The notes beneath the pieces were generated by a model, which saw nothing but the letters and a program-made list of their open reading frames with translations, was not told where the DNA came from and made no database searches. A DNA stretch of 64,000 nucleotides. It comes from Amphiscolops sp. MND2022. Taxonomy: Eukaryota. Below, one piece after another: positions 6,342-54,377 of this stretch (positions are counted from its first letter, which is position 1; every line of letters starts with the position of its first letter). A program made the translations under genes and the position numbers. Location: assembly GCA_964187785.1 (NCBI GenBank), contig OZ076416.1, positions 28,582,001-28,646,000 on the forward strand. The letters are read 5' to 3'.

Positions 6342-6358
6342 TGGTGCGACCAGTGAGG
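6342..6358 (+). promoter_or_regulatory. Putative primer-binding site of element A
   Basis: TGGTGCGACCAGTGAGG starts 3 nt after the LTR1 end; complement ends in CCA; primer tRNA not assigned. Confidence 0.7.
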
Positions 6359-7355: not shown

Positions 7356-8731
7356 ATGGCTGCGCAAAATTACTTGGCTTATCCAGACCTCGGCAGAGAC
7401 CAATTCACAGGAACAGACCCAGATCAAGATCCTGAACAATTTATACAACTAAATGAAAAGAAGTTCCGATTTTCTCATGGCGATACCCCAGCAAACGGAG
7501 CAGCACTTGACAACTACAACTTCAGAAGAAAATCCTACTTTGCTGCTCTACCAAGAGGACCCGCAGCGGAGTGGTTCGAGACCAGCATCACAGACGCTAA
7601 CACTTGGGCAGAAATCAGAGAAAGGTTCATCACACGATTCGCAGATGGCAGAAACAAATTCAGACACAGAATAGAAGCAGAACATGTCACCAGACGAAAT
7701 GGAGAAGAGATAAAGTTTTTCATACACAGAATCAAAATTGTTGTGGGAAAAGGCTGGCCAGATGATCTTGCTGGCGTTGCACAAAACGACAAATGCAGAA
7801 AGAGCAGCACAAGACAGACAAAGAAGACAAAGGTGCATCGACTACTCACTGAGAGGCCTAAGACCTCCAAAACTGAGAGAAAAGGCACACGAATATCTAA
7901 TGGATCACCCGAATGCAACCTGGGAGCAATTCTCCCAAGCTGTAATAAACTAAGACCTTTCCTGCACTGTAACTACCGCCCTAACTGGCGGAGAATCACA
8001 TGCAGACCCACTCATACAAGAAATGCGGGACGACCTGAAGGGAATTAAACTACAAATCAAAGAACAGATGAATAACACGATCAACGCAGTAGAGAATACC
8101 GAAGACCCTAATGCTACAGGACGAAGAATGGCCACACGATTCTGTGGCTACTGCCGAACGAATGGGCACACCTAACTGGTGCAGAAAGAAGATGAGAGAC
8201 GAAGTCAAGAAGGTTCAAAACGAAGCTAACACAAAGAGAAGAATAACATTCACCAACTATTACAACAAAAGAACCGGACCTGGACATGGCTCAAGATTTC
8301 AGCCAAGGTTACCCGTTTCAGAGATCTGAAAACATATGGCTGTGGCACACCAACTGGCGCTCGCTGGAGCTTTGCAAGCAACCCCCACTTGGAACCGATT
8401 TGATAAACCACAGAACAGAAACTTTAACTCAGAACGCAGAACTACGAGTACAAGGTTTGACTCTAATAACTCTAGATTCTCACAAGAGGGGAGAAGACCT
8501 TTTTCCAACAATCCCAACAATTCTAGAAGTGTCTCTCCAGGACTACAAAGGGCAAGATTTCCATTTGTCCCCAATAGAGGCCAGTCTAGTTCGTTCAACC
8601 GCAACATACTACCTCTTCCACCAAGGAATAACTCAGTTTTTCAGAGACAACAACAAAACAGAAACGAAAGACCCAACAACCCTACTCAGTCTTACGAGCA
8701 AAGATTCTCAAAGACCAATGACATGGGATGA
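7356..8731 (+). pseudogene. gag: Frameshifted gag with CCHC zinc knuckle
   Basis: ORF 7356-8048 (DPEQFI...LPRGPAAEWFE...WAEIRERFITRF, retrotransposon capsid-like); knuckle C-G-Y-C-R-T-N-G-H-T-P-N-W-C split by a frameshift near 8170; N/R/Q-rich tail in ORF 8336-8731. Confidence 0.85.
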
Positions 8732-9014
8732 TCCAAACAGAAAGGCAGTTTCTACAGGACTCAACTTCATAAATGTCCTATGTACACGGTTCGAGAAGAC
8801 ATTGCCAATTGTCATGGAAAACAACAAGAACCATACAATCATACTAGTAAAAGGAACAATTGGATACTCTATGCTAGACGTCATTGACAAAGAAATCCCA
8901 AAATATCAGATTACAAATCCTACCGAACTCGCTTACACCATTTTAAGCGAAAATGAAGAATACAATGATTGCTTCTTACTACACTCCACTATCCCTTCAC
9001 AAGATATGAACGAT

Positions 9015-9442
9015 TGCATCAGAATAGAGGGAGGAAATTCTACAACAATACTCAGCAGACCAAACTCTATTTTCATCTTTGCCCGGCTGATCTAAAGCCA
9101 GCAAAAAGCTTCTCTAAAGAAATTCTAACGAACATATCTTCATTAAAAGACTCTTGCGCAAAACAGAAACCACAAAAAGGCGACACAATACCCTACTGGG
9201 TTATGACTCTAAAGCGATTTATATACGTCCTAATCACTAAAGCTAAATCGAAAGACAAAATTGACCCACAAATTTTAGTCCAATCGCTGGAGACACTAGA
9301 AGCACACGCCAAAATGAATAGTATCAAGACAGTTTCTATGTTACGAGAAGCCTCGGAACTAGAAGACTTCCAATGGCAAGATGTTACACAAATTATTCAA
9401 GACGTTTTTGCCTACTCAGAAATACAACTCCGAATTTATACA
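9015..9442 (+). pseudogene. TARG1/OARD1 (Poa1p)-like macrodomain inside pol, upstream of RT
   Basis: RFIYVLITKAKSKDKIDPQILVQSLETLEAHAKMNSIKTVSMLREASELEDFQWQDVTQIIQDVFAYSEIQLRIYT aligns by eye, without gaps, to recalled TARG1 RYIYYLITK...[56 protein letters not shown]; N-terminal strand in the adjacent frame. Confidence 0.8.
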
Positions 9443-9535
9443 AGAAACGAACTAGATATCTATGCCATGACTACTAGATGAGACCCCGAATATGCACTAG
9501 TTGATGAAATACAACAAGTCTTTGAAGAATTTCAC

Positions 9536-12500
9536 TTGAAGCACAGAGAACTGGAAACTGACTTTACGAAAGACATAAAGTCCTGTCAACCACCTTGTGA
9601 CGAACAATTCAAGATATTTTGGCCCAAGGAAGACAACGAACGACTAATCGAATACTATCCTCAATATCAGAACAAAGAAGCAGTTCAATACATCAAAGAA
9701 TTCGACTTTCGCTACTCGGACCTCACAGACGAAGAACTTGTTCTTCTAATAGACCTACTAATGGATGCTAGCGATGTATACTCACAACACAAGTTCGACG
9801 TTGGGAAAACTAGACAGAAATTCATTATTAAACTGGAACAGGGAGCAATTCTGAAGAGACAGACCTAGCAAAGTACCACTACACCTACGAGAGAAGCTAC
9901 AAAAACTACTAACTAAGAGGCTGACATCATAGAGATGGGCGATGACGACGAAATGGGATCCGTATTCGTGAATCCCATCATCCTACAACCAAAACATGAT
10001 TGTCAAGTGACAGATCTAACAAACTACTCCTGGCCCTTGGAACCAATAAAAACCATAATGACGCTCATCAACGGGAAAATCTCAGTAAGTGATCTCTTCT
10101 GCGCTTTTCACCAAGTCCCACTAGACGAGCCCACACAGAAACTCACTAGCTTCATGATTGGCGGCAAACAATATACATTCACCAGAGGATTCTACGGACT
10201 TAAAGGATTACCCACTTTCTTCATCTGTATGATGACAAATCATTTCGAACCCCTCATCAAGAAAAAACAAGCAACTACCTACATAGACGACACGTTAATG
10301 CAGGCCAAAAACTAACAAGAAATGTTCAAAGTGATCCAAGAATACCATGACCTACTACGGAAAACAGGACTCAAGGCAGCGCCCGACAAAACACTATTCT
10401 TCTTGAGAAAAGTTAAGTTCCTGTGACATGTGATTGCAGCAGAAGGAATACAACCCGTTGCTAAACGAGTCAGGGATCTTCACAATCTCAAATCGCCAAA
10501 AACGAAAACTGAGGTAAAAAGCTTCCTAGGGGCTCTGGGATTTTATAGCTGTTACATCAAGAATCTACATGTCGATAGCCGACAATTCTACGAGCTGACC
10601 AAGAAAGATACAAACTTTTGTTGGAAACAAGAACATGAAGTCCTCTTCCAAGAAATAAAGAAGAGAAGAAGCGAAGACACAGTCCTTGCCGTACCCTCAA
10701 CAAAGTACCCTTCACATACACGTCGATTCATCCTACGTAGGAGCCGGATGTATCCTAATACAACAATCCCCCGAAGGAAAACGGATTATTTCCTTCAATT
10801 CACGAGTTTTTGCAAGAGAAGAAAAGAAGATGTCCACTCTACATAGAGAACTATGCGGCATAGTCTCAGCTCTTCAAACGTATGAGCACTACATCATCGG
10901 ATCGCCTTTCCCTATTTACTTATACTGTGACCATAAACCGATTCTATATCTCTGGGGACGAAAGGGACAAGTTTCCCCACGCTTCTTTAGATACCAAGTG
11001 ATTATTTCCAAGTTCCCCAATCTAAAGGTAATATGGACGCCGGGAAGCAACTTAGCCTTCCCTGATATATTCAGCCGAAATGTCTCAATCGAAGAACACA
11101 AGAAACATCAATTTAGCCACAAGATCCTACCCAACGACATACACTTCTTCGATGAGCATGGGACTCAAGTTCACTACAAAATCAAACACGAGGAAAACGA
11201 CGAGACATCAAAGAATGACTTCTACCCTATATTGTACGAGAAAGGGAAAGAATACACAAAATACTTACAGCTCTGTCAACAGCGATGCAGACGATGATGC
11301 TCCCACAAATGATGAACGTCAAGAAGTGAACGAAACAAATTACGAGCCGAATACGAGTTCCCGGGCACCCAAACAATGTTTCTCCAAAAACGATAAGGCA
11401 ACAGAAAATCACGAGCTCCCTAAAACCACCATGGGAAAACAAAAAACATCAGCACGAGAACTCATAGGCCAACTTGATAAGATATCCAGAGAAACGGAGC
11501 TAAATGTCAACACAATCTTACAAGAACAAATTAACGATCCAGTCCTTAGTGTGGTTCGACAGTGGATAAGTCAGGAAACAAGCCTACGCCGAAATCACCA
11601 GAGTTACAACACTCGAAAGGCCTCATGCGCTACTTTCAGCAGTTCGACAGACTAACTATAGAAGAACAAGGAAACCTCCTCTGTTACAACGAGCCAACTG
11701 ACGACCCTGCAGACGCAAATCTGAGAATCTGCCTACCTCTCTATTTCTAGCTTGCTTCCGTATGGGACATTACATTGACCTGGGCGGCCGCATGGGAGCT
11801 GAGAAAACCTACCTAAAAGCTGAAAGATTCTACTACTGGTCCGGAATGCACGACTGGATCTGTGTCCTCACACAAGATTGTGTTAGCTGCCAATCTAACA
11901 AATCCAAACAACGAAGAAATAACGAAGTCCCACTGGAAGACTGTGAAACTGAGACCCAAGTATTCAGAAAGGTTCATATCGATCACAAGGGACCACTCAA
12001 CCCTCCCAGTCGTGGAAATTCACATTGCCTCCTCATCATTGACGCCTTCTCACTCTACTTGATGGCATACCCGGTTAGAGACACAGGAGCACAATCAACA
12101 ATCAACGCAATGGAAAAATGGATTATGCACTATGGAATACCGCAATCTATCTTACATGATAGAGGAACAGCCTTTGTAAACACTGAATTCATCAATTGGA
12201 CGAAAGAGTTTGGCATTACTCTTCGACCAAGAACTGCACACTCACCCTGGACAAATGGCAAAGTCGAAACCCAAAATCAACACATTGCAAGATACTGGAG
12301 AAACTTCTTAAACGAATCAGGAAACAACTTTTGCATTCGCCCACAACACAAGCGTCAACTACACAACAGGAAAGACATCATACGAAATAGTGTTCTGCAA
12401 CAAACCACAAATACCTAAGAGTCTTAAGCTGGGACTCTGTAGGAATAAAAACAAGAACTGCAGATCAGTTCTGTAACGGATTACCTCCCCATCGCCATAG

Positions 12501-13364
12501 CGAAAACCAAGTCAAAAACGAACTACTAAATGGACTACTAAGACCACAACTATCTCAAAGCTTGCTGGAACGAGAAACAGCCTTCGAAAAGGTCTACTCA
12601 TCCACATACGTAAAGTGCAGACACTAAACAGCTCGATCACACGCCTACAGAAACAGATTTAAACTCGGAAATCATCTCAACATAGGACAAAAGTTCCTGC
12701 TAGAAAACCATCGAAAGGATCTCTCTAAAAGCCGAAAACTTCAACAACTGCGATTAGGACCCTTTACAGTTACCAAGAGAGTTACCAACACAACCTACCA
12801 AATAACACAAGTTCGAAATCTCGAGAACCTCCGAACTGTCCATAGAAATCACCTAATAGAATACTTTCCCAAAGAGGAAACACTCCCCCCTCTTATCGAA
12901 GAATACACAACTCCAAACCGGGGAGACACGGATTTTTATAACAATCTTGTCAAGGGCAGAATTGAACAGCTTAATGTTTCAGACCCACAAATACTCGGAG
13001 ATCTCTGTATACTGCCAGTACGGAACCAACAAGATCAATTACCTGCCCGCAAAAGAGCACAAACCCCACAGAGCACAGACTCTGGTATCATCTCTCCAGC
13101 AAATCAGTTGTTGACAACCCAAAGACTCCTGATCAGCCTTCGACCTCACATCCTCGAGACACCGCAACCCCTATCCTGACAATGACACAACGTCAACCGA
13201 CACCAGCACCCCCAACTAACACCGCGGCATCTTCAACCAAAATTACCAACTCCCTTGCAAGAATTAAGAAGAGCTGTTGCCCTCCACATAGAAAGAAATC
13301 CACGCTATCAACGCGCACAGCCCAATCAACCAGCACAACAATCCATCCTTCGCGAAAGGACTAG
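9536..13364 (+). pseudogene. pol: Disrupted pol: RT, RNase H, integrase (copy 1)
   Basis: RT SDLFCAFHQVPL...FTRGFYGL...YIDD (9935-10315); RNase H HVDSS...HRELCGIV...YCDHKP (10686-); integrase H/C zinc finger, HIDHKGP, HDRG, NGKVETQN (11762-12418); many stops and frameshifts. Confidence 0.93.
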
Positions 13365-13687
13365 AATTGGTTACAAAGAATAACCTTATCGTGCCATGCC
13401 ATAAAGTCTATCTAAATTTGCCTTGGCAAGTTCCGCGAGAACTTCAATCCTTCTGCGTTCCCGAGCCTAGACAAACGACTCAAGCCCCAAAAATCGAATC
13501 TACATCCTGAATCAAGGACTTTCGCCCTCTTATATCAACACCTCGCATACTATGCAGTCACACACCACGACCCTATCCTGGAGGAACTCCTATCCTACAT
13601 GCATACCCTAATACCTGACCTACAACCTTCCCTACCTAATACTCAAAAGGACCTATTCTGCTGCTCTACTATCTCCTCACCTATCTC

Positions 13688-14406: not shown

Positions 14407-17400
14407 ACAAAGTACCCCTTTCACTTACACGTCGATTCATCTAACGTAGGAACCGGATGTATCCTAATACAACAATTCCCCGAAGGAAAACGGATTATTT
14501 CCTTCAATTCACGAGTTTTTGCAAAAGAAGATGTCCACTCTACATAGAGAACTATGCGGCATAGTCTCAGCTCTTCAAACGTATGAGCACTACATCATCG
14601 GATCGCCTTTCCCTATTTGCTTATACTGTGATGATAAACCGATTCTATATTTCTGGGGACGAAAGGGACAAGTTTCCCCACGCTTCTTCAGGTACCAAGT
14701 GAGTATTTCCAAGCTCCCCAATCTAAAGATAATATGGACGCCGGGAAGCAACTTAGCCTTCCCTGATATACTCAGCCGAAATGTCTCAATCGAAGAACAC
14801 AAGAAACATCAACTTAGCCACAAGATCCTACCCAACGACATACACTTCTTCGATGAGCATGGGACTCAAGTTCACTACAAAATCAAACACGAGGAAAACG
14901 ACGAGACATCAAAGAATGACTTCTACCCTATATTGTACGAGAAAGGGGAAGAATACACAAAATACTTACAGCTCTGTCAACAGCGATGCAGACGATGATG
15001 TTCCCACAAATGATGAACGTCAAGAAGTGAACGAAACAAATTACGAGCCGAATACGAGTTCCCGGGCACCCAAACAATGTTTCTCCAAAAACGATAAGGC
15101 AACAGAAAATCACGAGCTCCCTAAAACCACCATGGGAAAACAAAAAACATCAGCACGAGAACTCATAGGCCAACTTGATAAGATATCCAGAGAAGCGGAG
15201 CTAAATGTCAACACAATCTTACAAGAACAAATTAACGATCCAGTCCTTAGTGTGGTTCGACAGTGGATAAGTCAGGAAACAAGCCTACGCCGAAGTCACC
15301 AGAGTTACAACACTCGAAAGGCCTCATGCGCTACTTTCAGCAGTTCGACAGACTAACTATAGAAGAACAAGGAAACCTCCTCTGTTACAACGAGCCAACT
15401 GACGACCCTGCAGACGCAAATCTGAGAATCTGCCTACCTCTCTATTTCTAGCTTGCTTCCGTATGGGACATTACATTGACCTGGGCGGCCACATGGGAGC
15501 TGAGAAAACCTACCTAAATGCTAAAAGATTCTACTACTGGTCCGGAATGCACGACTGGATCTGTGCCCTCACACAAGATTGTGTTAGCTGCTAATCTAAC
15601 AAATCCAAACAACGAAGAAATAACGAAGTCCCACTGGAAGACTGTGAAACTGAGACCCAAGTATTCAGAAAGGTTCATATCGATCACAAGGGACCACTCA
15701 ACCCTCCCAGTCGTGGAAATTCACATTGCCTCCTCATCATTGACGCCTTCTCACTCTACTTGATGGCATACCCGGTTAGAGACACAGGAGCACAATCAAC
15801 AATCAACGCAATGGAAAAATGGATTATGCACTATGGAATACCGCAATCTATCATACATGATAGAGGAACAGCCTTTGTAAACACTGAATTCGTCAATTGG
15901 ACGAAAGAATTTGACATTACTCTTCGACCAAGAACTGCACATTCACCCTGGACAAATGGCAAAGTCGAAACCCAAAATCAACACATTTCAAGATACTGGA
16001 GAAACTTCTTAAACGAATCAGGAAACAACTGGGCCCAACTAGCTGCTAAATTTGCATTTGCCCACAACACAAGCGTCAACTACACAACAGGGAAGACATC
16101 ATACGAAATAGTGTTCTGCAACAAACCACAAATACCTATGAGGAGTCTTAAGCTGTGACTCTGTAGGAATAAAAACAAGAACTGCAGATCACAGTTTTGT
16201 AACAGATTACCTCTCCATCGCCATAGCGAAAACCAAGTCGAAAACGAACTACTAAATGGACTTTTAAGACCACAACTATCTCAAAGCTTGCTGGAACGAG
16301 GAACAGCCTTCGAAAAGGTCTACTCATCCACATACGAAAAGTGCAGACACTAAACAGCTCGATCACACGCCTACAGAAACAGATTTAAACTCGGAAATCA
16401 CCTCAATATAGGACAAAAGTTCCTGCTAGAAAACCATCGAAAGGATCTCTCTAAAAGCCAAAAACTTCAACAACTGCGATTAGGACCCTTTACAGTTACC
16501 AAGAGAATTACCATTACAACCTACCAAATAACACAAGATCGAAATCCCGAGAACCTCCGAACTGTCCATAGAAATCACCTAATAGAATACTTCCCCAAAG
16601 AGGAAACACTCCCCCCTCTTATCGAAGAAAACACAACTCCAAACCGGGGAGACACGGATTTTTATAACAATCTTGTCAAGGGCAGAATTGAACAGCTTAA
16701 TGTTTCAGACCCACAAATACTCGGAGATCTCTGTATACTGCCAGTACGGAACCAATAAGATCAAATACCTGCCCGCAAAAGAGCACAAACCCCACAGAGC
16801 ACAGACTATGGTATCATCTCTCCAGCAAATCAGTTGTTGACAACCTCAAAGACTCCCGATCAGCCTTCGACCTCACATCCTCGAGACACCGCAACCCCTA
16901 TCCTGACGTTGACACAACGTCAACCGACTCCAGCACACCCAACTAACACCCCGGCATCTTCAACCAAAATCACCAACCCCCTTGCAAGAATTAAGAAGAG
17001 CTGTTGCCCTCCACAGAGAAAGAAATCCACGCTATCAACGCGCACAGCCCAATCAACCAGCACAACAATCCATCCTTCGCGAAAGGACTAGAATTGGTTA
17101 CAAAGAATAACCTTATCATGCCATGCCATAAAGTCTATCTAAATTTGCCTTGGCAAGTTCCGCGAGAACTTCAATCCTTCTGCGTTCTTCAAGTAACAAT
17201 TACAAAAATCTACTGGACCTACAAAAAACAAGATAGTTAGAATTCGCTTCAACTTCAACGACCCTGACCCGAGCCTAGACAAACGACTCAAGCCCCAAAA
17301 ATCGAATCTACATCCTGAATCAAGGACTTTCGCCCTCTTATATCAACACCTCGCATACTATGCAGTCACACACCACGACCCTATCTTAGAGGAACTCCTA

Positions 17401-18527
17401 TCCTACATGCATACCCTAATACCTGACCTACAACCTTCCCTACCTAATACTCAAAAGGACCTATTCTGCTGCTCTACTATCTCCTCACCTATCTCCTAGC
17501 CTGCTCCATTTTCCTGACATAAAACTAATATAAATATTATAATTATTTTTTGATACACTTCGTGCAACCCCGTAGTATAACTCACGCAAATGCGGACGAA
17601 GACAGAAGGAAATACAAAAATAAGGGCTAGAGTGGAGTAGCCTAACAGGCCTACTCCACTTCTAAGAAACCCCCATCTCCGCCAGTTTTTGTAACTGTTG
17701 AACTCGCTCAGCGTTGATCCAGTCGGGCAACAAACGACGAAACTGCCCCCGCTGGTAGGTCGTCAGCTGGGAGTATCCAGGGATGTAACTCCTGAGCCTA
17801 AATAGCAAGACTTCTCCCTGCTCGGCTAGGAGTCGAGCCTCCCACTGCCGCCCGAACAACTGCATCAGGAAAGATGCGAACCCGTCTGGGATAGGAACAG
17901 CCACCGCCATAATTCTTCGGTACCTACCCTCTAATCCATCGAGTTCTCTCGACCCACTCCTCCAATCGACGGACGTCCCCCAATTATATAAATCCATGAA
18001 GGTCTCATGGTCCGGGTTGCTTATCTCTCCAGGGATTAGCAAACCGTGGGGCCGACGCAAGGGAGGAACCGCAACCACGGGAGCCCCAACTGGACGAGAC
18101 GTGTCCAGGCGACTAGGCCCGGCCACAGACCCCGATGAAGGATCCGCCGCTACAACAACAGAGGACACAGCCACAGAAGCGACGGAAGAAGCCACAACAG
18201 CTGCAGCCGGCGAAGAGGCCGAGACAGTAGCAGAGAAAGGGGCTGTAACGCCCGATGCCCCACTATGGGCAAGATTATTAACATTGTTGCTGCTCATTAC
18301 TGAACCCAAAGTAGCTATAGTTAAAATTTTGTCATGTAAACCTAAACAAATATCTACTGATTTGACATTAATCCTATACTTACATAACAACTTATCCTAT
18401 TATCCACAGATACTATTTATTATATCTCGATAGCTCTCTAATTTACGGCGATCTTATATGAGATCGTAATCGTACTTTTCATTATACAATGGTTCTCAAA
18501 CCCAATGAAATAACTGATGATTACATT
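14407..18527 (+). repeat. Tandem duplicate of the RNaseH-integrase-3' region (10700-14406)
   Basis: Junction GATTACATT|ACAAAGTACC at 14406/14407; ORFs 14781 and 15263 repeat 11080 and 11562 at offset 3701; inactivating lesions are shared. Confidence 0.93.
17662..18297 (-). CDS. Antisense accessory ORF of unknown function, copy 2 (211 aa from MSSNN)
   Basis: Continuous ORF in a GC-richer island; Ser/Ala/Val-rich N-terminus then a globular-looking half (FMDLYNWG...RQWEARLLAEQGEVLLFRLR). Confidence 0.55.
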   Translation of the reverse strand: MSSNNVNNLAHSGASGVTAPFSATVSASSPAAAVVASSVASVAVSSVVVAADPSSGSVAGPSRLDTSRPVGAPVVAVPPLRRPHGLLIPGEISNPDHETFMDLYNWGTSVDWRSGSRELDGLEGRYRRIMAVAVPIPDGFASFLMQLFGRQWEARLLAEQGEVLLFRLRSYIPGYSQLTTYQRGQFRRLLPDWINAERVQQLQKLAEMGVS

Positions 18528-18580
18528 CTCTGATTTGCTATGTTTGATGAACACAAACAACGAGGCAAAACAACCCACAG

Positions 18581-19390
18581 ATGATCATAATATTCAAAAT
18601 CTACAACCGACTTTCACATATCACTGACATTCAGAAGGAACCCTCAACACAGAACATCATCCTACAAGCCTACGCAATAGCAGAAGAAAGTGAAACCTAC
18701 ACGTGCGTGCCAGCATCACCTATCTACCCACTGGAGAGCTTGCCATATAATAACACACTACAGAAGTCTTCACAAGAGCCAAATCAGTCATCTAATGTCC
18801 TCTCCCGCAGCTGCCGTCTTCCGCGGGAATAAGTACTACTTCCACACACAATTTCAACCTCCGGTTCCTTTGACCCCCATACCACTCAATGGTCAATACG
18901 AAATGGTCATCACTAACTCTGCGGTTCAAGTTCGTATACTCACACCAGAAGTATACAACTTCAAATGTAGCTTCACGAGCCCTATCTATACTACTCACCT
19001 AGCAGGCTGCAAAATATCCTTTAGACTATTTCCATGTGGGAAAAACCTCTTCCGTGGAATCCACTCCTCCATTTGCTGTGAACTCCATCTTAGCGACTTC
19101 ACGCTCCCTCGAACATGGCCTTTCGACCGACAAGTAGAAGTCTCCATCATAGAACAAAAACAATAAGTGGTCTACCTACTTCCCACACCACTGACAAGAA
19201 CAACCAAGACGTCACCCACGCCAGCACCTACACTCTCCCGGACCTCATGCGAGAAGATTTCATCCCTCACACAAAACTATTGGTCAACTTCAGGGAAGCC
19301 TTTTTAAACGACTCTGTAATCCTCCAAATTAAATTTAACGAACACCCCTCTAAAATCCCAAGTGCTAAAGAGACCTCCCCTCATTTCTGA
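18581..19390 (+). pseudogene. Accessory ORF with TRAF-type MATH domain (core 18888-19336), copy 1, frameshifted
   Basis: NGQYEMVITN...SPIYTTHLAGCKISFRLFPCG...GIHSSICCEL...WPFDRQVEVSIIEQ...FIPHTKL...FLNDSVILQIKF matches the TRAF-C strand pattern (W-K-I, SPxFYT..GYKxCLRLYxNG, GTHLSL, WPF.Q.V.L.LLDQ, F..H..L, YL.DD.L.I). Confidence 0.75.
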
Positions 19391-19425
19391 CCTACCCCAA
19401 ATACATCGTTCTCTTTTTCCCTGCC

Positions 19426-19432
19426 AGGGGGG
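19426..19432 (+). promoter_or_regulatory. Polypurine tract before LTR2
   Basis: AGGGGGG followed by TAAGC then TGTCGC. Confidence 0.75.
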
Positions 19433-19437
19433 TAAGC

Positions 19438-20512
19438 TGTCGCGTTATGACTAACGCTTAATCAATAATATAAATGCAACTGCAACAATAAAGCGCTTAA
19501 CAAAAAACACCTGATTTAATAAAAAGCTCAACAATCATCCCAGGGCTACTCTTCCGTTTCTCTACAAAAAGCACCTGTTTAAATAAAAAGTGTAATAAAC
19601 ATCTTTGTGCTACAGTGCAGTTTATGATTGAAAAACACCTGAATTAAAAAAATTCTCAACAATTGTCCCCTGTCTTCAGTGCAGTTTGTATTCAAAAAAG
19701 ACCTGAAAAACAAAGCAGGAAATTGAACTAACCTGGAGAAAGGGAGATTAAATAATTGATTAAGTAGGACGGCTGGCAGAGAAAAGGGAGGACGCTGAAT
19801 AATAAGTAAATAATCGAGGGATACAAATACCGCTGGATTGCAAAAATGAAAAATTCTATTATTTACCGCGTAGATTCGAAATCTAAAGCTAAGCTCTGAA
19901 TGGCTGAATGCAAAATTAGCCAACAGGGCACTTCGGCAGAAGTGCTGAACTGTTTTTATACGGCGTGCACAGGCTGGAGCTTCATTCTCCCCGCCAACCG
20001 TCAAAGCTTCAACCTAAAGAAGCTCTCGCCCTTCCTCGCTTCTCCTCTTCCCTTCACTCCAACTCTACTTCTCTTCACTAAATTCTTGAATCATTTCACC
20101 TTTGACTAAAAAATTCTATCTTTCTTCCCCTCTTTTGCCTTGGCTCTCAAATTTGCTAATCACATCCCTCTTAGCTGAATTTTCTATCTTAGAAAATTCA
20201 CTTCAATCCGACAACAGTTCCGGGTCTGGTGAGTGAAAAATTACTTAGTTTCTTTTTGGGGAGATTTCTGATTCTCCCTTTCTAACTAAATTCTATCTTA
20301 GAATAATTTCGCTGATTTCACTCAGCGGTTGTTTAAAATCTATCTTAGAATAATTCCACTGATTTTACTCAGTGGTTGTTAAATTTCTATCTTAGTATAA
20401 TTCCGCTGTGTTCACTCAGCGGTTGTTTAAATTCTATCTTAGAATAATTCCACAGATTCTACTCAGTGGTTGTTAAAATTCTATCTTAGTATATTTCCGC
20501 TGATTTCACTCA
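19438..20512 (+). repeat. Truncated internal LTR (LTR2)
   Basis: Near-identical to the 5' part of LTR3; breaks inside the fifth hairpin unit (array 20289-20512) and joins internal sequence homologous to 17255 onward. Confidence 0.92.
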
Positions 20513-20913
20513 ACGACCCTGACCCGAGCCTAGACAAACGACTCAAGCCCCAAAAATCGAATCTACATCCTGAATCAAGGACTTTCGCCCTCTTATATCA
20601 ACACCTCGCATACTATGCAGTCACACACCACGACCCTATCTTAGAGGAACTCCTATCCTACATGCATACCCTAATACCTGACCTACAACCTTCCCTACCT
20701 AATACTCAAAAGGACCTATTCTGCTGCTCTACTATCTCCTCACCTAGCTCCTAGCCTGCTCCATTTTACTGACATGAAACTAATATAAATATAATTATTT
20801 TTTGATACACTTCGTGCAACCCCGTAGTATAACTCACGCAAATGCGGACGAAGACAGAAGGAAATACAAAAATAAGGGCTAGAGTGGAGTAGCCTAACAG
20901 GCCTACTCCACTT

Positions 20914-21548
20914 CTAAGAAACCCCCATCTCCGCCAGTTTTTGTAACTGTTGAACTCGCTCAGCGTTGATCCAGTCGGGCAACAAACGACGAAACTGCCC
21001 CCGCTGGTAGGTCGTCAGCTGGGAGTATCCAGGGATGTAACTCCTGAGCCTAAATAGCAAGACTTCTCCCTGCTCGGCTAGGAGTCGAGCCTCCCACTGC
21101 CGCCCGAACAACTGCATCAGGAAAGATGCGAACCCGTCTGGGATAGGAACAGCCACCGCCATAATTCTTCGGTACCTACCCTCTAATCCATCGAGTTCTC
21201 TCGACCCACTCCTCCAATCGACGGACGTCCCCCAATTATATAAATCCATGAAGGTCTCATGGTCCGGGTTGCTTATCTCTCCAGGGATTAGCAAACCGTG
21301 GGCCGACGCAAGGGAGGAACCGCAACCACGGGAGCCCCAACTGGACGAGACGTGTCCAGGCGACTAGGCCCGGCCACAGACCCCGATGAAGGATCCGCCG
21401 CTACGGCAACAGACGACACAGCCACAGAAGCGACGGAAGAAGCCACAACAGCTGCAGCCGGCGAAGAGGCCGAGACAGTAGCAGAGAAAGGGGCTGTAAC
21501 GCCCGATGCCCCACTATGGGCAAGATTATTAACATTGTTGCTGCTCAT
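20914..21548 (-). pseudogene. Antisense accessory ORF, copy 3 (split by 1-bp loss near 21300)
   Basis: ORF fragments 21288-21641 and 20914-21294 together reproduce copy 2. Confidence 0.55.
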
Positions 21549-21831
21549 TACTGAACCCAAAGTAGCTATAGTTAAAATTTTGTCATGTAAACCTAAATAA
21601 ATATCTACTGATTTGACATTAATCCTATACTTACATAACAACTTATCCTATTATCCACAGATACTATTTATTATATCTCGATAGCTCTCTAATTTACGGC
21701 GATCTTATATGAGATCGTAATCGTACTTTTCATTATACAATGGTTCTCAAACCCAATGAAATAACTGATGATTATATTCTCTGATTTGCTATGTTTGATG
21801 AACACAAACCACGAGGCAAAACAACCCACAG

Positions 21832-22641
21832 ATGATCATAATATTCAAAATCTACAACCGACTTTCACATATCACTGACATTCAGAAGGAACCCTCAACA
21901 CAGAACATCATCCTACAAGCCTACGCAATAGCAGAAGAAAGTGAAACCTACACGTGCGTGCCAGCATCACCTATCTACCCACTGGAGAGCTTGCCATATA
22001 ATAACACACTACAGAAGTCTTCACAAGAGCCAAATCAGTCATCTAATGTCCTCTCCCGCAGCTGCCGTCTTCCGCGGGAATAAGTACTACTTCCACACAC
22101 AATTTCAACCTCCGGTTCCTTTGACCCCCATACCACTCAATGGTCAATACGAAATGGTCATCACTACCTCTGCGGTTCAAGTTCGTATACTCACGCCAGA
22201 AGTATACAACTTCAAATGTAGCTTCACGAGCCCTATCTATACTACTCACCTAGCAGGCTGCAAAATATCCTTTAGACTATTTCCATGTGGGAAAAACCTC
22301 TTCCGTGGAATCCACTCCTCCATTTGCTGTGAACTCCATCTTAGCGACTTCACGCTCCCTCGAACATGGCCTTTCGACCGACAAGTAGAAGTCTCCATCA
22401 TAGAACAAAAACAATAAGTGGTCTACCTACTTCCCACACCACTGACAAGAACAACCAAGACGTCACACACGCCAGCACCTACACTCTCCCTGACCTCATG
22501 CGAGAAGATTTCATCCCTCACACAAAACTATTGGTCAACTTCAGGGAAGCCTTTTTAAACGACTCTGTAATCCTCCAAATTAAATTTAACGAACACCCCT
22601 CTAAAATCCCAAGTGCTAAAGAGACCTCCCCTCATTTCTGA
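21832..22641 (+). pseudogene. TRAF-type MATH accessory ORF, copy 2 (core 22139-22587)
   Basis: Near-identical to 18581-19390 with the same frame breaks. Confidence 0.75.
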
Positions 22642-22676
22642 CCTACCCCAAATACATCGTTCTCTTTTTCCCTGCC

Positions 22677-22683
22677 AGGGGGG
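22677..22683 (+). promoter_or_regulatory. Polypurine tract before the 3' LTR
   Basis: AGGGGGG-TAAGC-TGTCGC. Confidence 0.75.
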
Positions 22684-22688
22684 TAAGC

Positions 22689-24592
22689 TGTCGCGTTATG
22701 ACTAACGCTTAATCAATAATATAAATGCAACTGCAACAATAAAGCGCTTAACAAAAAACACCTGATTTAATAAAAAGCTCAACAATCATCCCAGGGCTAC
22801 TCTTCCGTTTCTCTACAAAAAGCACCTGTTTAAATAAAAAGTGCAATAAACATCTTTGTGCTACAGTGCAGTTTATGATTGAAAAACACCTGAATTAAAA
22901 AAATTCTCAACAATTGTCCCCTGTCTTCAGTGCAGTTTGTATTCAAAAAAGACCTGCAAAAACAAAGCAGGAAATTGAACTAACCTGGAGAAAGGGAGAT
23001 TAAATAATTGATTAAGTAGGACGGCTGGCAGAGAAAAGGGAGGACGCTGAATAATAAGTAAATAATCGAGGGATACAAATACCGCGGGATTGCAAAAATG
23101 AAAAATTCTATTATTTACCGCGTAGATTCGAAATCTAAAGCTAAGCTCTGAATGGCTGAATGCAAAATTAGCCAACAGGGCACTTCGGCAGAAGTGCTGA
23201 ACTGTTTTTATACGGCGTGCACAGGCTGGAGCTTCATTCTCCCCGCCAACCGTCAAAGCTTCAACTTAAAGAAGCTCTCGCCCTTCCTCGCTTCTCCTCT
23301 TCCCTTCACTCCAACTCTACTTCTCTTCACTAAATTCTTGAATCATTTCACCTTTGACTAAAAAATTCTATCTTTCTTCCCCTCTTTTGCCTTGGCTCTC
23401 AAATTTGCTAATCACATCCCTCTTAGCTGAACTTTCTATCTTAGAATATTCACTTCAATCCGACAACAGTTCCGGGTCTGGTGAGTGAAAAATTACTTAG
23501 TTTCTTTTTGGGGAGATTTCTGATTCTCCCTTTTCTAACTAAATTCTATCTTAGAATAATTTCGCTGATTTCACTCAGCGGTTGTTCAAAATCTATCTTA
23601 GAATAATTCCACTGATTTTACTCAGTGGTTGTTAAATTTCTATCTTAGTATAATTCCGCTGATTTCACTCAGTGGTTGTTTAAATTCTATCTTAAAATAA
23701 TTCCACTGATTCTACTTAGTGGTTGTTAAAATTCTATCTTAGTATAATTCCGCTGATTTCACTCAGCGGTTGTTTAACTTCTATCTTAGAATAATTCCGC
23801 TGATTTTACTCAGCGGTTGTCTAAATCTCTATCTTAGAATAGAACTAAATAAATGGTTGGCGTTACACAAGTATTGACAAAATCATTTCACCTTATTTAC
23901 CCTGTAAGTTTGTCTCTTATAAAAAGTCTCAATACTGTCTCTATACCCTACAGAACAGTGACTTTAAAAAACTAAAACTCGCCAGTTTAAAATATCACTG
24001 GCTAAAACCATCCCTTATACGGAGCTAATTTAAAGCATTTTCGAGATGAAAATGTAAAAGCTTGCAATTTTATCTGTAAATTTTATAAATGTTTTCTGAT
24101 GTAATTTATGAAGCTACTTTGCTCGAAGATAAAATAAATCCTTTAAATTTACTGCTGAAGTAAAATGAATAGTTAATTTGCTGCCGAATTTAACTTAAAA
24201 TGGAATAGACACTGAGATGCCTAAAAAAATCCCCTTAGTACTATTGTCCGTTCACGTGATATAATTCAACATATTTCCTTATCATACTTTCTTTTTAGTC
24301 AGAGAGCTCTTTTACATACACTGCCTTGCACCTACTCACGCAATTTCCTTTGTTCGCACGTACACGCAAGGCACTTCCTTCCTAGTAGCGTAAGAAAGCT
24401 AGTATTAATTACACAGAGTGAGCTTTGAGACTTTCTTACTCACTTCTGATCAATAAAAAAATAGTCGCCTGAAAGTACTTTGCAAAATGCTAAGTAAGCT
24501 GAACTGACTAATACTGATAACAATTGAACAGTCCCTTGAAAAGAGAAAAACAGAAAATCGTAAACAGCAAAAATCTATCCATGCGTGCGACA
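22689..24592 (+). repeat. 3' LTR of element A (LTR3, 1904 bp; 6-unit hairpin array at 23542-23840)
   Basis: TGTCGC...GCGACA ends; the 135-bp deficit versus LTR1 is about three fewer array units. Confidence 0.93.
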
Positions 24593-27500
24593 CCCCTCTC
24601 GACAATTCTACTTCTCAATAAATTATTCGACTTCCTGGATGCCAGAAGAAGAACCAGACCCTCTCACCGTCTCCAATCAATCAACTGAATTTACATCTAA
24701 GTGTCCTCAGATGGTTGACGTTAGTTTAACATTTTTCTATAGACCGATTCAGTAGTGAGACTACTGCTATAAACTTTTCACCTGCGCCCAGTATAACGTG
24801 TACTCGGCTGCCGGTTTGATAAACTTTTTTGCAGTAGTGAGTTTACTGCTATAAAATTTTAACCTCCGCTCTGACATTTCTGTCGAATACATTTTCATTG
24901 AAATTTATCCCGTGCGAAATCAAGTACCTTAGTTTATCATCTTATACTGTTTTTTTTCGCACTCTTGTTCTGAAGAAAATCTATCGGTGTATTTTTGACA
25001 CCCTAGCAGATAATCATAGTCATTGGGCGAGCTGCCGTGGAAAACTGGTGTACTCTCCAGTTACCAAAGGGTACTAAAACCCTAAACACAAACGACTTCA
25101 CTGTCAAAATGTAAAAGTTCATTGCGACAACCTTTAGTGACAAGATTCCATTGATTTGGGTCATTTTCATACGCGACTTGTAGTGCAAAAGTCTGACAAC
25201 TTTGAAGGGAGATTTCACGACTCCTGAAGGATGCTTCATTTTTTAGAGGGAGTAATGACAGCATTGACTACTGCTTCATTTTCAGGCCCAAAATATTATT
25301 GTCTAATAAAAAATTTGTTCATTGAGAGCCAACAGTATTGATTATGCCAGCTCTAGATATTTTAGTATGTTCATTTCATATTAAAGTGCTATTGGTGAAC
25401 AATTGTTCAAGCTTTAATTGTATTATGTCGTTATTTCATTGCTTTTTATTATGAAATTCACTTTGTTTTAGTCCGTGATTTACTCTGGTGACTATGTTAA
25501 TTACTTTTAATTCAAAATTTTCAGTGCATTTAAACACAGTCTAGGTAGTCATGAATTCAATAGCTAGTCTCTGTTGTGAAAGAAATTCTCAGCTGAAAGG
25601 AGCAAGTTTCAAAAGTTTAACACAGAAAAAGTTATTGCATGTATTTTTCAAGTATACGTCTTGCATCAATCAATGTCCACGTTTGAGTATTTTTACGGAT
25701 GTCCGGACACTTGCTACTGGACATTTGCTACTACAGACAAAATGCTACTAAGCTGATTGCCACTACATTGTGCTTCTTCGGAGTGACCCATGAGTTGACT
25801 AATTAGTGAATTATGAAAAAAAGTTTGCTGGAATTTGGCACAATCTTTAAAAATTGCCGGCTATTGAGTCGTGAAAGTGGGTTTGCTTGTTTTCAAATCC
25901 AAAATGAAAAAAACTGACTAATAGTTCCATGGTTAACAGCTAATAGCCTAATAGTCGGAATTAGTAGCAATTACACCCAAATAGCAAATAATTGCCTAGT
26001 AGTAATTCTCCTAGTTACAAACGTCCTATAACTTATTTAAGGGTTTTACCCCTTGCCTTTCTGAGCTTCTCAAACGCATTGTTCATAGCCTCGCTAAATG
26101 TACCCGCGTTGTGCAGCTTGGCCGTTTGGTCGATTCCGAACACGTTTAGTTGAAATCATTTGATGGATGTCATTAACTTCTGCTGATATCAAAGAACTAA
26201 CTTCAATCACTTTCTTCCTAACGTATGAATTTTCAAGACTGAGTATTGTTGCTCTCACGTTCTCCACGTTCTCTTATAATAACATTGACACTGATTTCAA
26301 GAAGTAAACTTGAAACCAGCAGAAACGTACATTTAGCTTCTAACAATTTTCTTTCAAGCTCCCACTTTTTTTCATATCTCAAACGTTATCAGAGAACAAT
26401 CCGGCGGAATGCCACGTTTGGTTGCGGGAGAGTGGTGAGAAGTTGGAGACGTAATAGATATGAAATCAGCAACTTCATTGCGATATCGTTGTAAACTGAC
26501 GACTTCTACGAACTAAGTCTGATAAACTTAACCCTAATTGTTCTGGGCGTTTTTGTAAATTTTCGAAAAAATGAATAAAAATTTTCAATCATTAATGTCT
26601 CCACAACTACGCATACCAGACAAATGAACTACAGTGGTGTGAAGAAAAAATGCGACTTAGCTGCTCAAAGGCTAATTTTGCAGTCTCATATCTCCAAAAC
26701 TATTCGAAATGGTTCAATTATGTAAAAACGAAAGTTTCTTAAATTTTTGCTATGATTACAATGGTTTTTGTTTGAAATTTCAACCATCATTGTTTCCGAA
26801 GTTAGAAACATGTGATTTTGGGAGGAAAATAATTAAAATTGCTAGTTTTTGAGAAAATATCAGTGATCCAATGAACATTTTTTGATAAATTTTGCCTTGC
26901 AGATACACTCAAATCTCTCGAAAACGAAGATGAAATTTGATTTTGAATGTATTTGGAAAATGTATATTGGTGGGAGTTTTACCAAGTGTAAGTCTGAAAT
27001 TCCTATCTTAATACATGTATTTCCAATTTTACTGAACAAAAAAGTGCTCCCATTTTTGTTTTCTTGGTGATTTTCACAAACAAAAACTATCATTGGATCG
27101 AGAAAAATCAGAGAAATTTTTGGTATTATTTTCATGTAAAAATTATCCCAGAGACAGAAAAATATTGAAAATACTGATTTTTGCGAGCGATCGAGGCTCG
27201 TTAAACCAATGAGATTTGAGCAGCGAGGTGTTGTGAACCAATCAAATTAGGGAATTCTTTGCATTCTTTCTTCACACCACTGTATAGCGCGTTTGAAAGG
27301 CCTGGTACTGTGCTTTCATTTTGATCTGGTGAGCCCCTGTCGCCGCGCCCCATTCTTCAGAATACAAGCGGGGGCTTGTAGTAACAACAGGATTTTATTG
27401 GGGTTTGTTGCACAAGGCCTTGTTGTGGAACAGTATGTGGTTGTTTGTTTATTGACCAAAGACTTTTGAGAAAACTGGATTTCGCCAAAAACTGAATTTT

Positions 27501-28190: not shown

Positions 28191-29196
28191 ACGAAACGGC
28201 CAACTGAAAGCGATTGTATGAAGGTTCGAATAGGTTACATCGAAGCCATGAAAGAACTTATTTGTTTTTGATGCTTATGTGACTACTTGATGGAAGGCAA
28301 TACTAGATAAGTTTCGGAGGTCAGTTCGGCATCGAAGCTGATCTAGCCTACTAAGCTTCATAATGCCCTTCAATTGGTTTCTGTAAACAAAAGGATTACT
28401 TGAAACTACCAGACAGCTAATGAGATGAACGCGAACGAGTATTAACTTTCGATACAGTAATTCTTAATTCTTCGCTGATAGCTTTCAATATCTCAAAGGA
28501 GCGAATGCGAAAGGTCATTATAAGTTATTTGGAGTGTTCTCGTAGAACAATTGCTTTCATTCTACAGTTCATTTCATTTCTACTGCTTTCATTCATTTCT
28601 TGTAGTAACAGTCATAAATTTGGATGCTTTCAATAAAACGTATTAGGTTGGCACTTCTTTTTCAAGATTCTGAGAAACCTGTCTGAAATTCCGAGTTTTA
28701 CCTTTGCCAAAAATTCATGAAAAAATGATTTTTGAGCCAGAACAATTTAGATGGAACGATACAGTTGCAGTTAGGAAATGTTTTGCAGTAGCTGAACTAT
28801 CATTGAATCCCGAAGGGGTCAATTTCATTTCAATAGGTTTAATGTTTTGTTTCATTGATTTGTAATCCGGTCAAAATACCATTCGGGATTTTCTGTTTGA
28901 ACAGAAGAGTTGAAATCGGATCAATCGAAAAATGGAATTGAATTGCGATTCTCAGAGATGTAGCGCCCTGGTAACAAAATACTTAATGATTGGATGAAGA
29001 AGTAACTTTTCTGAGGATCTTTTGTTTTCTAGTAAGACAGCGTTTTTACTGAATGTGTATCAGGTTTGATTTTTCAGTTGGAATGGTTTTTCATTAGTCT
29101 GAAAAAAATGAGTAATCTTGCAATGTTCCGTTGATGATTTAGCTGTTCTCAATTTTGTGAGAAAACGAACTGTTTTCTGCCTCGGAAAGTCGAAAC

Positions 29197-32100
29197 ATGG
29201 CTTCAGTCAGCCACGAAACCACTGACCAAAAAACTGCCTCCGATCAGCCTACTAGAGCACGATGTTATTTTGACATTTCCATCAACAAGCATGAAGTTGG
29301 AAGGATTGTGTTTGAACTTTTCCTTGACATCTGCCCCAAAACGTGTGAAAACTTTCGCTGTCTATGCACCGGCGAAAAGGGCAAAACCTCTGACGGCCGA
29401 CATGCCTTGCATTACACGCAATGCCGATTTCATAGGGTCGTGAAGGGGTTCATGATACAGGGGGGAGATTTCACATTGGGCAATGGAAAAGGAGGCGAGT
29501 CAATTTATGGGTCAACGTTTGAGGATGAAAACTTTTTGTTGAAACATGACCAGGAGTTTTTGCTGTCCATGGCAAATAAGGGTGCTAACACAAACGGCTC
29601 TCAGTTTTTCATCACGCTCGCCAAGTGTCCGCATTTGGACGGCAAGCATACGGTGTTCGGCAAAGTTGTTTCCGGACAGGAAATAGTGAAGTTGATCGAA
29701 AACCAGCCCGTTGAAGCGCATAAACCGGCCGGCGAAATAGTGATTGAAAACTGTGGAGAGTTGGTTTTGATGAAGCGCAAGAAGGAGAAGAAAGAAAAGA
29801 AAGCCAAAAAAGAAAAGAAGGCGAAGAAAGAGAAGAAGAAAAGCAGAAAAGGCGATGAAGATAAGGCCGATACAAGTTTAGATGTTACCAATGAAAATAA
29901 AGCAAGCGATGGTGATGCTGATTCTTCCAATGAGGGATCACCACAAAAGAAAGCCCCAAACGATGACTCCAAGGCTGGGGAGAACGAGAATGAAAGAGAG
30001 GCAGAGGCTGCTGACGGTGGTACTTTTGGTGCCGATAGCTCTGCTGAAGATATCCTCGACATATGTAAGTGTTTCCAGTTGTATGGCGGCTCAAACGTTT
30101 CGATACAAAGTTTGAAGGAAAGCGTAGTGCCACTCAAATGATTTCTAGTTTTCAGTTAAATGATAAAAATTGCCAACATTCTGATAATTTTGAAAATGTT
30201 TTTGTGGACTAAAACTAAGAATAATTAAATTATACATTAACCCTAAATGGACCGCGACATTTTCGGATCCATCCAAAAATCTGGTGTTTAAACTTTAAAC
30301 CGCAATATCTCCTAAAGTATTCAAGTCCGACAAACGATTCATAGCGCGTTCAAAAGAGGACAATTAGGGCTTTCATTTTGATTTTTAAACTCCGGACTTT
30401 GCGCCAAAATTTTGCACGCCTCGTGTCTCTTATTGCATTTCAGCTTGTTCCAACACATGCTGGAGTCACAATCTTGATACCAGTGGGCCAGAAACAAAAC
30501 TGGAAAAACGGAAAATCGGCTCTCAATTTTTTTGATTTTTTGGTCCCATTTTCATGATTTCGGAGACACCATGTCAATATTCCGTGAAATGACGTGCAAT
30601 GCTATGTAAAATCGTCTGGAAATCTTATTCAAGAGTTTTCTTCACCATACGGTCAGCTGGTGCGTTTAGAAGTATGCAGAATTTAACTGGTACGAAATCG
30701 TACCATGGTCCATTCAGGTTAAAATGAGTCGATTTTTGGCGTTTTGCTAATTGTAAAGGAGAAAACATTTTGAGGAGAGTCATTTTGTAATCGATTTGTT
30801 TCAGCTGTTTCAAAACCTGAGCAGATGGCGCTGAACGAACCCAACGAGGAGATACTAGCATCTCCTCTTTTGGAACCTTCCAAATTGCCTGACATTATAT
30901 CATCGCATAATTCTAAACCCGATAAAAATGCGTCAGTGACAAACGAAGACGAAGGCGCAGTACCATACTTTTGCTCTATCGACCCTGATGAAATTCCATC
31001 TATTCCAGACAAGAAGTTCTTGACGCGGGTAGCACCAGAAGATGACCTTAAAGATAGAGACAAAGATGACGTGGACCCTGAAAATGATGATCGTAATTCA
31101 GCTGGAAAAGAGAAACGGAAGAAAGAATGGAGAATTGGACCTGATGGTATGAAAATAAAGGGCAGAGGTACTATGAGGTACAACCCGTATGCCGATAGAG
31201 AAAGAAGCATTACTCCGCCACATTGGAAAAACAACACCTCTTTCAGACCTATGAAAAGGAATCTTCCTGATTCTGAAGACGATAAAGGCGACTTGTTCAC
31301 TGATAACGGTAATGCTGATAATTTGAATGTACTCAGAGCCAAACGAAACCGAAGCCGTGAAAAAGACCGAAGCGATAGAACCCAAGAACGCAATACCCGG
31401 TTTGACAAGTTTTATAGAATGAGAGAAGAGGAAAGATTGCATAATTATAATTACAGCAGAAGTAGAAGAAAACATGCCGACAGAGAGGAAGAAGCGCACC
31501 CACAGGAAAATAACGAGATAGGTCAAAGTAGTCAACATGTATCTTCGGTGATTGAGCAGCGACTTATTGACACCATCAGCCAGCGAGTCAAAACTGAGAT
31601 GAATGAAGATACGGGACCCCCTGAAGAAGGCGAATGTTTGGACCCTATTCCTTTCCGACCTAGATCTCCCAAGAGAAAGAAAAAGGAGCGCAAAGATTCT
31701 GAAGAAGGAACATATATGTCCCTTCACAGAAACGAAAAAACGGATGCAAATGATGATGAAAGAAGGCCGAGTGAAAAGAGTTCGCCAAGAAAGTCCCGAG
31801 GTTCTAGAAAGAGTAAATCCCGGAGCCGATCCCTCCATTCAGGGGAGCGAAAAAGTATCACTGTCAAAAACGAGGGTGACTCCAAAAGTCGAGCAATTAT
31901 CTCGAAAAGCATAGAAGCAAGTATTTCAGAAAGGTTCAAATCAATAGCCAATTACAGCCTAAATGATATCATGACCTCAAAGAGCTCCAGTAATGTAGAT
32001 GCCAAATCTGGTGTAAATACAAGAAGTAGCCGGAATGCAGACGAAGAAAAAGAATATTTCACAAGGCGGAAACCTGGGAGTGAAACCAAAAGATCTTTCG

Positions 32101-54168: not shown

Positions 54169-54365
54169 TGTTGACGATAACGAACTTAGGTGAAAGAAGA
54201 GAATTTCGTAACAACTGTGAATTAGTACAGAATCTGATGTTATGGCAGTTGCTGTTAATTTGCCACTTTGGCTAAGTTTGGCAGGTTGTTATTATTACGT
54301 AATTTAATCATTTTCACACATTTGTTTTCTCAGCAATTAAGTTCAGTATTCTAGACTCTACTACA
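54169..54365 (-). repeat. 3' LTR of element B
   Basis: Differs from 59374-59570 at 4 of 197 positions by manual comparison. Confidence 0.95.
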
Positions 54366-54377
54366 CTTCCCTCTTTT
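54366..54377 (-). promoter_or_regulatory. Polypurine tract of element B
   Basis: AAAAGAGGGAAG on the minus strand, directly abutting the 3' LTR. Confidence 0.88.

Follow-up and report, generated by a model that had tools for sequence, protein, structure and literature searches.

A TRAF-C remnant in a decayed Ty3/gypsy element of Amphiscolops sp. and its intact retroelement relatives of likely host origin

MATH_TRAF_C domains are already known from gypsy retroelements, namely the giant Burro/GYPSM1 elements of planarians, the env of which is related to fusion proteins of mononegaviruses and for which meddling with apoptosis or ubiquitin pathways has been proposed (accessible portions of PMC6431247). 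A coiled coil and MATH domain derived from a host TRAF are also carried by a virus, in ORF111L of the megalocytivirus ISKNV (accessible portions of PMC3352826), while an LTR-gag-pol-env layout, many near-identical copies and a fusion glycoprotein of class III type are features of errantiviruses and of Anakin (accessible portions of PMC13524379 and PMC12440569).

A TRAF-type sequence was examined here in a stretch of 64,000 nucleotides of Amphiscolops sp. DNA (the window). It was found to belong to a lineage that resembles each of these systems, combining a gypsy LTR element and its MATH_TRAF_C domain with a mononegavirus-like env, in this case of Monjiviricetes type. The interpretation favoured here, which is considered reasonably probable, is that the window holds the remnant of a retroelement TRAF gene (retro-TRAF) captured from a host, the product of which would in one clade (clade A) be a trimeric adaptor tethered to PABP by a PAM2 motif. 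The anatomy and history of the gene are held with high confidence; the PAM2-PABP mechanism, a binding predicted from sequence, is put forward tentatively, at slightly under an even chance.

Organization of the decayed element in the window

The window contains a decayed Ty3/gypsy element at positions 4300-24592, flanked by a target site duplication of 4 bp (4296-4299, with the same four bases at 24593-24596). Features are on the forward strand unless stated otherwise. Hallmarks of Ty3/gypsy elements were identified, namely LTRs of the TG..CA type, a primer binding site (PBS), a polypurine tract (PPT), a short target site duplication and the pol order PR-RT-RH-IN, the 5’ LTR of the window ending in a mutated base. 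The 5’ LTR (4300-6338) contains internal repeats of 47 bp and 64 bp and is 90-93% identical to the 3’ LTR (22689-24592), and the PBS (6342-6358) has the same sequence in five of five related elements examined from clades A, B and C. The gag-pol region (7350-13364) is decayed into many pieces that retain the Ty3/gypsy order of gag, RT, RNase H and integrase, with Pfam matches to PF03732, PF00078, PF17917, PF17921 and PF00665, and the region of RNase H and integrase is duplicated internally, 14407-17187 being 96% identical to 10700-13460. An insert between protease and RT was also observed, at 8969-9481 and in pol of relatives, which appears macro/TARG1-like by eye and gave no Pfam match.

An antisense accessory ORF of 244 aa, measured from stop to stop, is situated on the reverse strand at 17662-18396 and has no Pfam match. 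Such an ORF, of 200-240 aa, was found to be kept across clade A (L035:1900-2583, L081:1321-1974, L083:1401-2102), again with no family match. Accessory ORF-a (83 aa, 18581-18832) overlaps the 5’ part of accessory ORF-b (18795-18949), as is also seen in relatives; it was considered as the N-terminus of the TRAF and rejected, being a separate accessory ORF outside the TRAF gene. A deletion junction at 18950-18955, identified by alignment to genomic relatives and corresponding to a loss of approximately 4.2 kb, joins ORF-b in frame to the TRAF-C (MATH) remnant (18956-19390), which is followed by the PPT (19426-19437) and a truncated internal LTR (19438-20515). The earlier note on this DNA had placed the domain between the antisense ORF and the PPT, and this location was borne out, with the PPT/LTR at 19426-19438. 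The internal LTR lies at the boundary of a tandem duplication of 3.26 kb (17255-20515 and 20510-23768, 98.99% identical), the second copy of which carries the TRAF remnant at about 22207-22641. The domain is broken in both copies, as had been claimed; however, these were rejected as independent copies, and their agreement is not independent evidence because they are one tandem duplicate.

Frame 18681-19163 was found to match PF21355 (TRAF-mep_MATH, E 6e-5, over half of the profile and under the curated cut-off) and also PF22486, confirming the TRAF-type MATH homology proposed earlier. Later TRAF-C strands are split over two further frames. Where a single frameshift at approximately 19152-19167 had been proposed, alignment to two relatives placed two, near 19153 and 19184. 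The claim that the TRAF-C strands occur in order stands from SPIYTT onward, whereas NGQYEMVIT was rejected as a TRAF strand, as it belongs to the upstream ORF-b and was fused in frame by the deletion, and the true first strand and the entire N-terminal half of the TRAF gene are absent from the window.

A DNA search of genome G000 showed that, among the best 40 of 202 matches, the whole 861 bases were matched by the two window copies only, the other 38 being limited to the first ~390 bases or to the last ~465. Of 20 relatives fetched, 18 were found to contain both halves, never adjacent but separated by 1.6-4.8 kb, in most cases 4.0-4.2 kb. The segment deleted from the window consists of the rest of ORF-b, the small ORF-c, env and a linker ORF, as well as the portion of the TRAF gene that holds its PAM2 motif, coiled coil and first TRAF-C strand. 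In relatives the lost env is a glycoprotein of ~715 aa (PF24664, E 2e-32). The window copy is a dead deletion chimera that cannot encode a whole TRAF-C domain.

Elsewhere in the window, host genes were identified at 29161-32744 and 34281-35147, namely a cyclophilin-type PPIase (PF00160), a 656-aa ORF with no Pfam match and a MORN-repeat ORF. A second, unrelated short gypsy element on the reverse strand (54169-59570) possesses LTRs of 197 bp (98% identical) and long pol ORFs, with an RT ~29% identical to that of the TRAF-bearing lineage.

The intact retro-TRAF gene and its candidate host donor

The intact gene of relatives was identified as an intronless ORF for a coiled coil and TRAF-C, 250-330 aa overall, situated behind env as the last gene before the PPT. 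In clade A the product (300-335 aa) comprises, in order, a PAM2-like motif, a linker, the coiled coil and TRAF-C. Intact ORFs exceed the Pfam cut-offs for PF22486 and PF21355 (both MATH families), and an intact ORF matched 23 solved TRAF sequences, with domains of TRAF1-5 at E 1.6e-7. Its predicted structure (mean pLDDT 61, pTM 0.48) contains a helix at residues 84-130, with pLDDT of ~80-87 at residues 91-120, that would represent the coiled coil (TRAF-N) ahead of TRAF-C. The Foldseek comparison suggested by the earlier note was performed on this model and returned TRAFs for all of its leading matches (E 3e-8). RING and zinc fingers as found in TRAF2-6 gave no Pfam match in the scanned element ORFs, including the intact homologous ORF, in keeping with what had been noticed from the window. 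The element-like composition remarked on there was also recovered, the intact ORF being G-poor (G 0.15-0.17 vs 0.25-0.26 in host TRAF exons).

A protein search identified 19 loci with an open frame of 327 codons and 21 with one of 329-331 codons among the best 150 of 496 matches, and in a MATH Pfam search of G000 every one of the best 150 of 440 candidates was above cut-off. Well over a hundred TRAF-C loci belong to mobile elements, outnumbering the few cellular TRAF genes among the matches listed, and any tally of TRAF ‘immune genes’ for this genome would be inflated by them. An env ORF of at least 170 codons was found upstream of the TRAF ORF in 13 of 14 inspected element pairs of stretches, the exception (L099) having env fragments only and no LTR pair. 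About ten loci similar to C5:58814065 match TRAF-C residues 69-165 only, with a frame of 165 codons, and are possibly a non-autonomous derivative.

Three gypsy clades were found to carry the TRAF, namely A (that of the window), B and C. Identity between clades is 78-91% for RT-RNase H, 54-61% for env, 22-38% for the linker ORF and 18-30% for TRAF-C, while within clade A it is 62-80% for TRAF-C against 95-96% for env. Gag (430-490 aa), pol (1600-1850 aa) and env are separate ORFs. The env that follows pol matched PF24664 in four of four scanned ORFs (E 1e-32 to 2e-39), and its top Atlas matches were of the same glycoprotein family (0.97); no solved relative was found by sequence. Matches of element ORFs to Plk4_PB2, LcrV, TcdB_toxin_midC and ACBP4_C were under cut-off and were taken as chance or coiled-coil noise. 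At L095/L096 (C9:61.43-61.45 Mb), a clade-B TRAF and env were observed behind the pol of a different gypsy lineage, as either a recombinant or a nested insertion.

Young families have moved recently, since LTR pairs of 99.0-99.95% identity occur in clades A, B and C and since one family is represented by 15 fetched copies that are without exception intact and differ by 0-8 nt, with the TRAF 103 nt ahead of the PPT and LTR. In the older family of the window, a frame unbroken from PAM2 onward was found in 5 of 20 copies, and a sixth (L050) is intact downstream of the motif only.

Using the Nei-Gojobori method with natural unbroken ORFs, dN/dS was found to be 0.05-0.23 in 10 of 11 pairs, with the eleventh saturated; these pairs share branches and represent one consistent signal rather than many tests, several dS values being near saturation (up to about 2). 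By part, the values in six pairs were 0.055-0.25 in TRAF-C and 0.045-0.25 in the N-terminal region, against 0.02-0.09 in env. The TRAF gene is constrained, yet it is the fastest evolving among the genes compared. Among clade-A pairs (L035, L050, L081, L083), the TRAF ORF was observed to have diverged at synonymous sites ~2x as much as env, which hints at exchange of a 3’ cassette or at codon constraint on env.

Among the matches listed, the candidate donor L140 (C3, 90.866-90.870 Mb), a host TRAF gene with GT-AG introns, was the one locus of its kind. It shares with clade B a coiled-coil motif, FPL-NLKN-QYLHATQLQVA (41%), and a TRAF-C that is 49% identical; clades B and C are 39-50% identical to L140 and clade A is 23-26% identical. 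Because of this low identity, the donor assignment for clade A rests on the tree together with a short FP(L/I) coiled-coil motif. A phylogeny against host TRAFs, as called for in the earlier note, was built with 51 rows; a branch with 99/98 support places every TRAF of the elements together with proteins of the L140 type on one side, and 12 TRAFs of canonical type with two further host TRAFs on the other. The order among clades A, B and C was not recovered in this tree. One clade of retro-TRAFs was not rejected by the AU test (p 0.164, 27 rows), and A, B and C may derive from a single capture. The host TRAFs L139 and L189 were rejected as donor, having 15-30% identity and lying on the opposite side of the tree. 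Side observations at the donor were an insertion resembling BEL/Pao by eye upstream of its TRAF (L140:7700-10000 and L193:1-5327) and an ORF resembling, also by eye, a Polinton-type cysteine protease (L193:9519-9965).

The phase-2 intron of L140 inside the MATH domain is missing from the gypsy copies, in agreement with the intron absence noted from the window. The intron between the coiled coil and MATH is missing as well, but only the MATH-internal one is diagnostic because the other is also missing in the cellular-looking relatives P0030 and P0169. Capture of the TRAF gene from the mRNA of a host TRAF, with an L140-type donor, is likely on the basis of these comparisons.

The donor also appears to have been natively RING-less. 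The short N-terminus given by the first exon of L140 is also where P0177 and P0178 start, and RING or zf-TRAF matches were obtained for none of six subfamily proteins while zf-TRAF was detected in two of two canonical controls; a zf-TRAF search of the genome gave a single locus, elsewhere than L140. As these starts are automatic gene calls, the donor may still possess an upstream RING exon. The subfamily is further characterized by an insertion after the first strand and by the missing Ser triad.

Among 1.84 billion representatives, 14 proteins were found to be the sister group of clade A (98/95), with two more grouping with clade C. The sister proteins come from other genomes, because one tested member has matches of only 35-38% in G000. 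No relative of P0045 was found among metagenome contigs and none of A1 among viral contigs, and a relative search for P0048 gave one match of 23 residues.

A second carrier was identified at eight loci (L176, L178, L180, L182, L184, L186, L194 and L195; for example L180:700-10000) as a non-LTR repeat in which long inverted arms flank a coiled-coil and TRAF-C gene 54% identical to L140. In three of three copies checked, an intron of ~70 nt at the position of that of the donor is followed by the last exon, which is the pattern expected of a capture at the DNA level. This DNA element serves as an internal control for the loss of the intron in the gypsy copies. Its inverted arms are at least 2 kb, and it also contains a 200-aa ORF and an ORF of ~190 aa with a PHYHVL motif, which looks HUH-like; the 191-aa ORF had no Pfam match and Atlas leads that were all under 0.9.

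PAM2 motif, receptor groove and candidate functions

The PAM2 positions L-N-P-x-A-x-x-F-x-P were found to be invariant in 11 of 11 aligned proteins (20-89% identity), all of which fit the definition of the motif as hydrophobic-3, N-4, P/V-5, A-7, F-10 and P-12 (accessible portions of PMC2854688). Pfam matches to PAM2 were weak, with 7 of the 11 at E<=0.1, the best at 0.0055 and all below the 20-bit cut-off. In 2.4 million translated residues from fetched, partly redundant loci, the pattern occurred 55 times in 12 distinct contexts, always at these N-termini, and 2 of the 14 sister proteins of clade A (P0052 and P0139) open with the same motif. Clades B and C do not possess the motif, and the lineage taken together can therefore do without it. 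Two MLLE domains were identified in the host, one PABP-like and one beside HECT-like sequence (L200, UBR5-like).

The canonical receptor groove of TRAFs is formed by Arg/Tyr, Ser triad and FxRP residues. Across four clade-A rows, the groove Arg is kept in three, and the Ser triad and FxRP are lost in all four. The LFFV strand residues are also lost in clade A and adjacent strands are altered, whereas clades B and C keep FxRP/FxKP.

A pyrimidine-rich TTTAG acceptor was found right after the env stop in nine of nine copies from all clades, and a homologous linker ORF lies between env and the TRAF in all three clades, its stop overlapping the TRAF start codon in six of six clade-A copies. At the C-terminus of the linker ORF (L035:6173-6754; L131:6194-6754; L114:442-920), a basic motif, RF..L.Y.L....W.I.FWD, was observed to be conserved across the three clades. 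In clade A this ORF lies behind the splice acceptor and has no Met, as expected of a Rev-like regulator.

A mechanism may be proposed in which a subgenomic RNA is spliced at the conserved acceptor after env, and translation of the clade-A TRAF ORF from it likely proceeds by stop-restart from the linker ORF. The coiled coils of cellular TRAFs trimerise, and that of the retro-TRAF likely does the same. Clades B and C, being closest to the donor, would probably act in receptor or death signalling as mimics or competitors of the host TRAF. In clade A, with its remodelled groove, PAM2 is likely to be presented to MLLE domains, with PABP as the predicted partner and UBR5 as an alternative, a contact that would tie the adaptor to mRNA translation or stability.

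Truncated TRAFs can act as dominant negatives, and the RING-less protein could be a decoy that sits on receptor tails or disables the trimers of host TRAFs, dampening innate or death signalling. Such a role, which had been the functional proposal of the earlier note, is judged possible but doubtful. A coiled coil and TRAF-C with no RING would suit it, as would the FxRP/FxKP loop and the 39-50% identity to the host gene that clades B and C retain, and the same elements carry an env of infectious type. However, the absence of RING is apparently inherited and not a sign of conversion, since the donor subfamily appears to have been RING-less already (by the starts of P0177 and P0178 and the controls above), and a viral TRAF with a RING promotes apoptosis (accessible portions of PMC3352826). 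The decoy argument is further weakened by the inability of the window copy to encode a whole domain, by the loss in clade A of the FxRP loop and LFFV residues, and by the gain in that clade of a PAM2 motif, which could not be noticed from the window because it is deleted there. Recruitment of an E3 ligase, in which PAM2 would bind the MLLE of the HECT ligase UBR5/HYD and TRAF-C would deliver a host restriction factor for ubiquitination, is considered unlikely. PABP is far more abundant than UBR5, the motif cannot discriminate between the two, and there is no known substrate, although the remodelled and fast-evolving TRAF-C of clade A would fit a changing one, G000 does encode the UBR5-like MLLE, and UBR5 itself contains an MLLE domain (accessible portions of PMC2854688).

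A processed host pseudogene carried in the 3’ region with no function is regarded as very improbable. It would account for the dead copies of the window and for the 14-15 of 20 copies of the older family that are broken, but is largely refuted by dN/dS of 0.05-0.25 at dS of up to about 2. Open frames in three clades that are 18-30% identical and the conserved splice acceptor and start context also argue against it, and copies with a broken TRAF are also broken in env and pol. A recent, neutrally decaying pseudogene present in a single copy, the outcome that the earlier note had set against its own reading, is at odds with purifying selection across deeply diverged clades; this selection, together with a candidate donor that possesses GT-AG introns, supports the retro-capture and long residence proposed there. 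The PAM2-tethered trimeric adaptor remains the favoured reading for clade A. A wider scenario, possible rather than probable when its parts are taken jointly, would have an enveloped gypsy lineage capturing a TRAF once and keeping it through its radiation, with one branch rewired from a receptor adaptor to a trimer bearing PAM2 at its tips, through which PABP or UBR5 would be taken over, and with capture of the same host gene by an unrelated element through a DNA route marking this TRAF as a hub of defence against mobile elements.

Comparison with known systems

The presence of MATH_TRAF_C in gypsy elements was already known from Burro, and the aspects for which no description was found are the 3’-terminal TRAF gene after env, its donor and the PAM2-TRAF fusion. 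This applies to the literature searched, with most subscription papers and Repbase outside its scope; the word TRAF is absent from the accessible text and searched supplements of PMC13524379. It is rare for a signalling gene of host origin in an LTR retroelement to be documented together with its donor, intron loss and selection in one genome. The finding points to accessory biology like that of complex retroviruses in invertebrate gypsy elements and names the L140-type host TRAF as a likely target of conflict between element and host, while the PAM2-MLLE prediction is short and cheap to test.

Cellular TRAFs of the TRAF1 type possess a coiled coil and TRAF-C with no RING, an architecture found in the elements and likely in their donor too. 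Unlike them, the donor subfamily carries inserted sequence behind the first strand and is without the Ser triad, and clade A has lost the FxRP loop. The PAM2 proteins eRF3, Paip2, Tob, PAN3 and ataxin-2 share with the clade-A proteins all defining positions of the motif (accessible portions of PMC2854688), which in the elements lies at the N-terminus of a retroelement TRAF. ISKNV ORF111L, by comparison, belongs to a DNA virus of fish, possesses an N-terminal RING and no PAM2, binds TRADD and induces apoptosis (accessible portions of PMC3352826). Compared with errantiviruses, the elements carry several extra accessory ORFs that include the host-derived TRAF. In Burro/GYPSM1 the domain is found inside a polyprotein of ~4,900 aa or in an upstream ORF, accompanied by motifs of the BIR, BCL2 and ankyrin types, and gag is separated from pol by env (accessible portions of PMC6431247). 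The scanned element ORFs gave no Pfam match to BIR, BCL2 or ankyrin motifs and included no giant ORF1 of the Burro type. Compared by features, the lineage described here is distinguished from Burro/GYPSM1 by a separate 3’-terminal TRAF ORF after env, by the coiled coil and PAM2 motif, and by having a candidate donor and selection that was measured.
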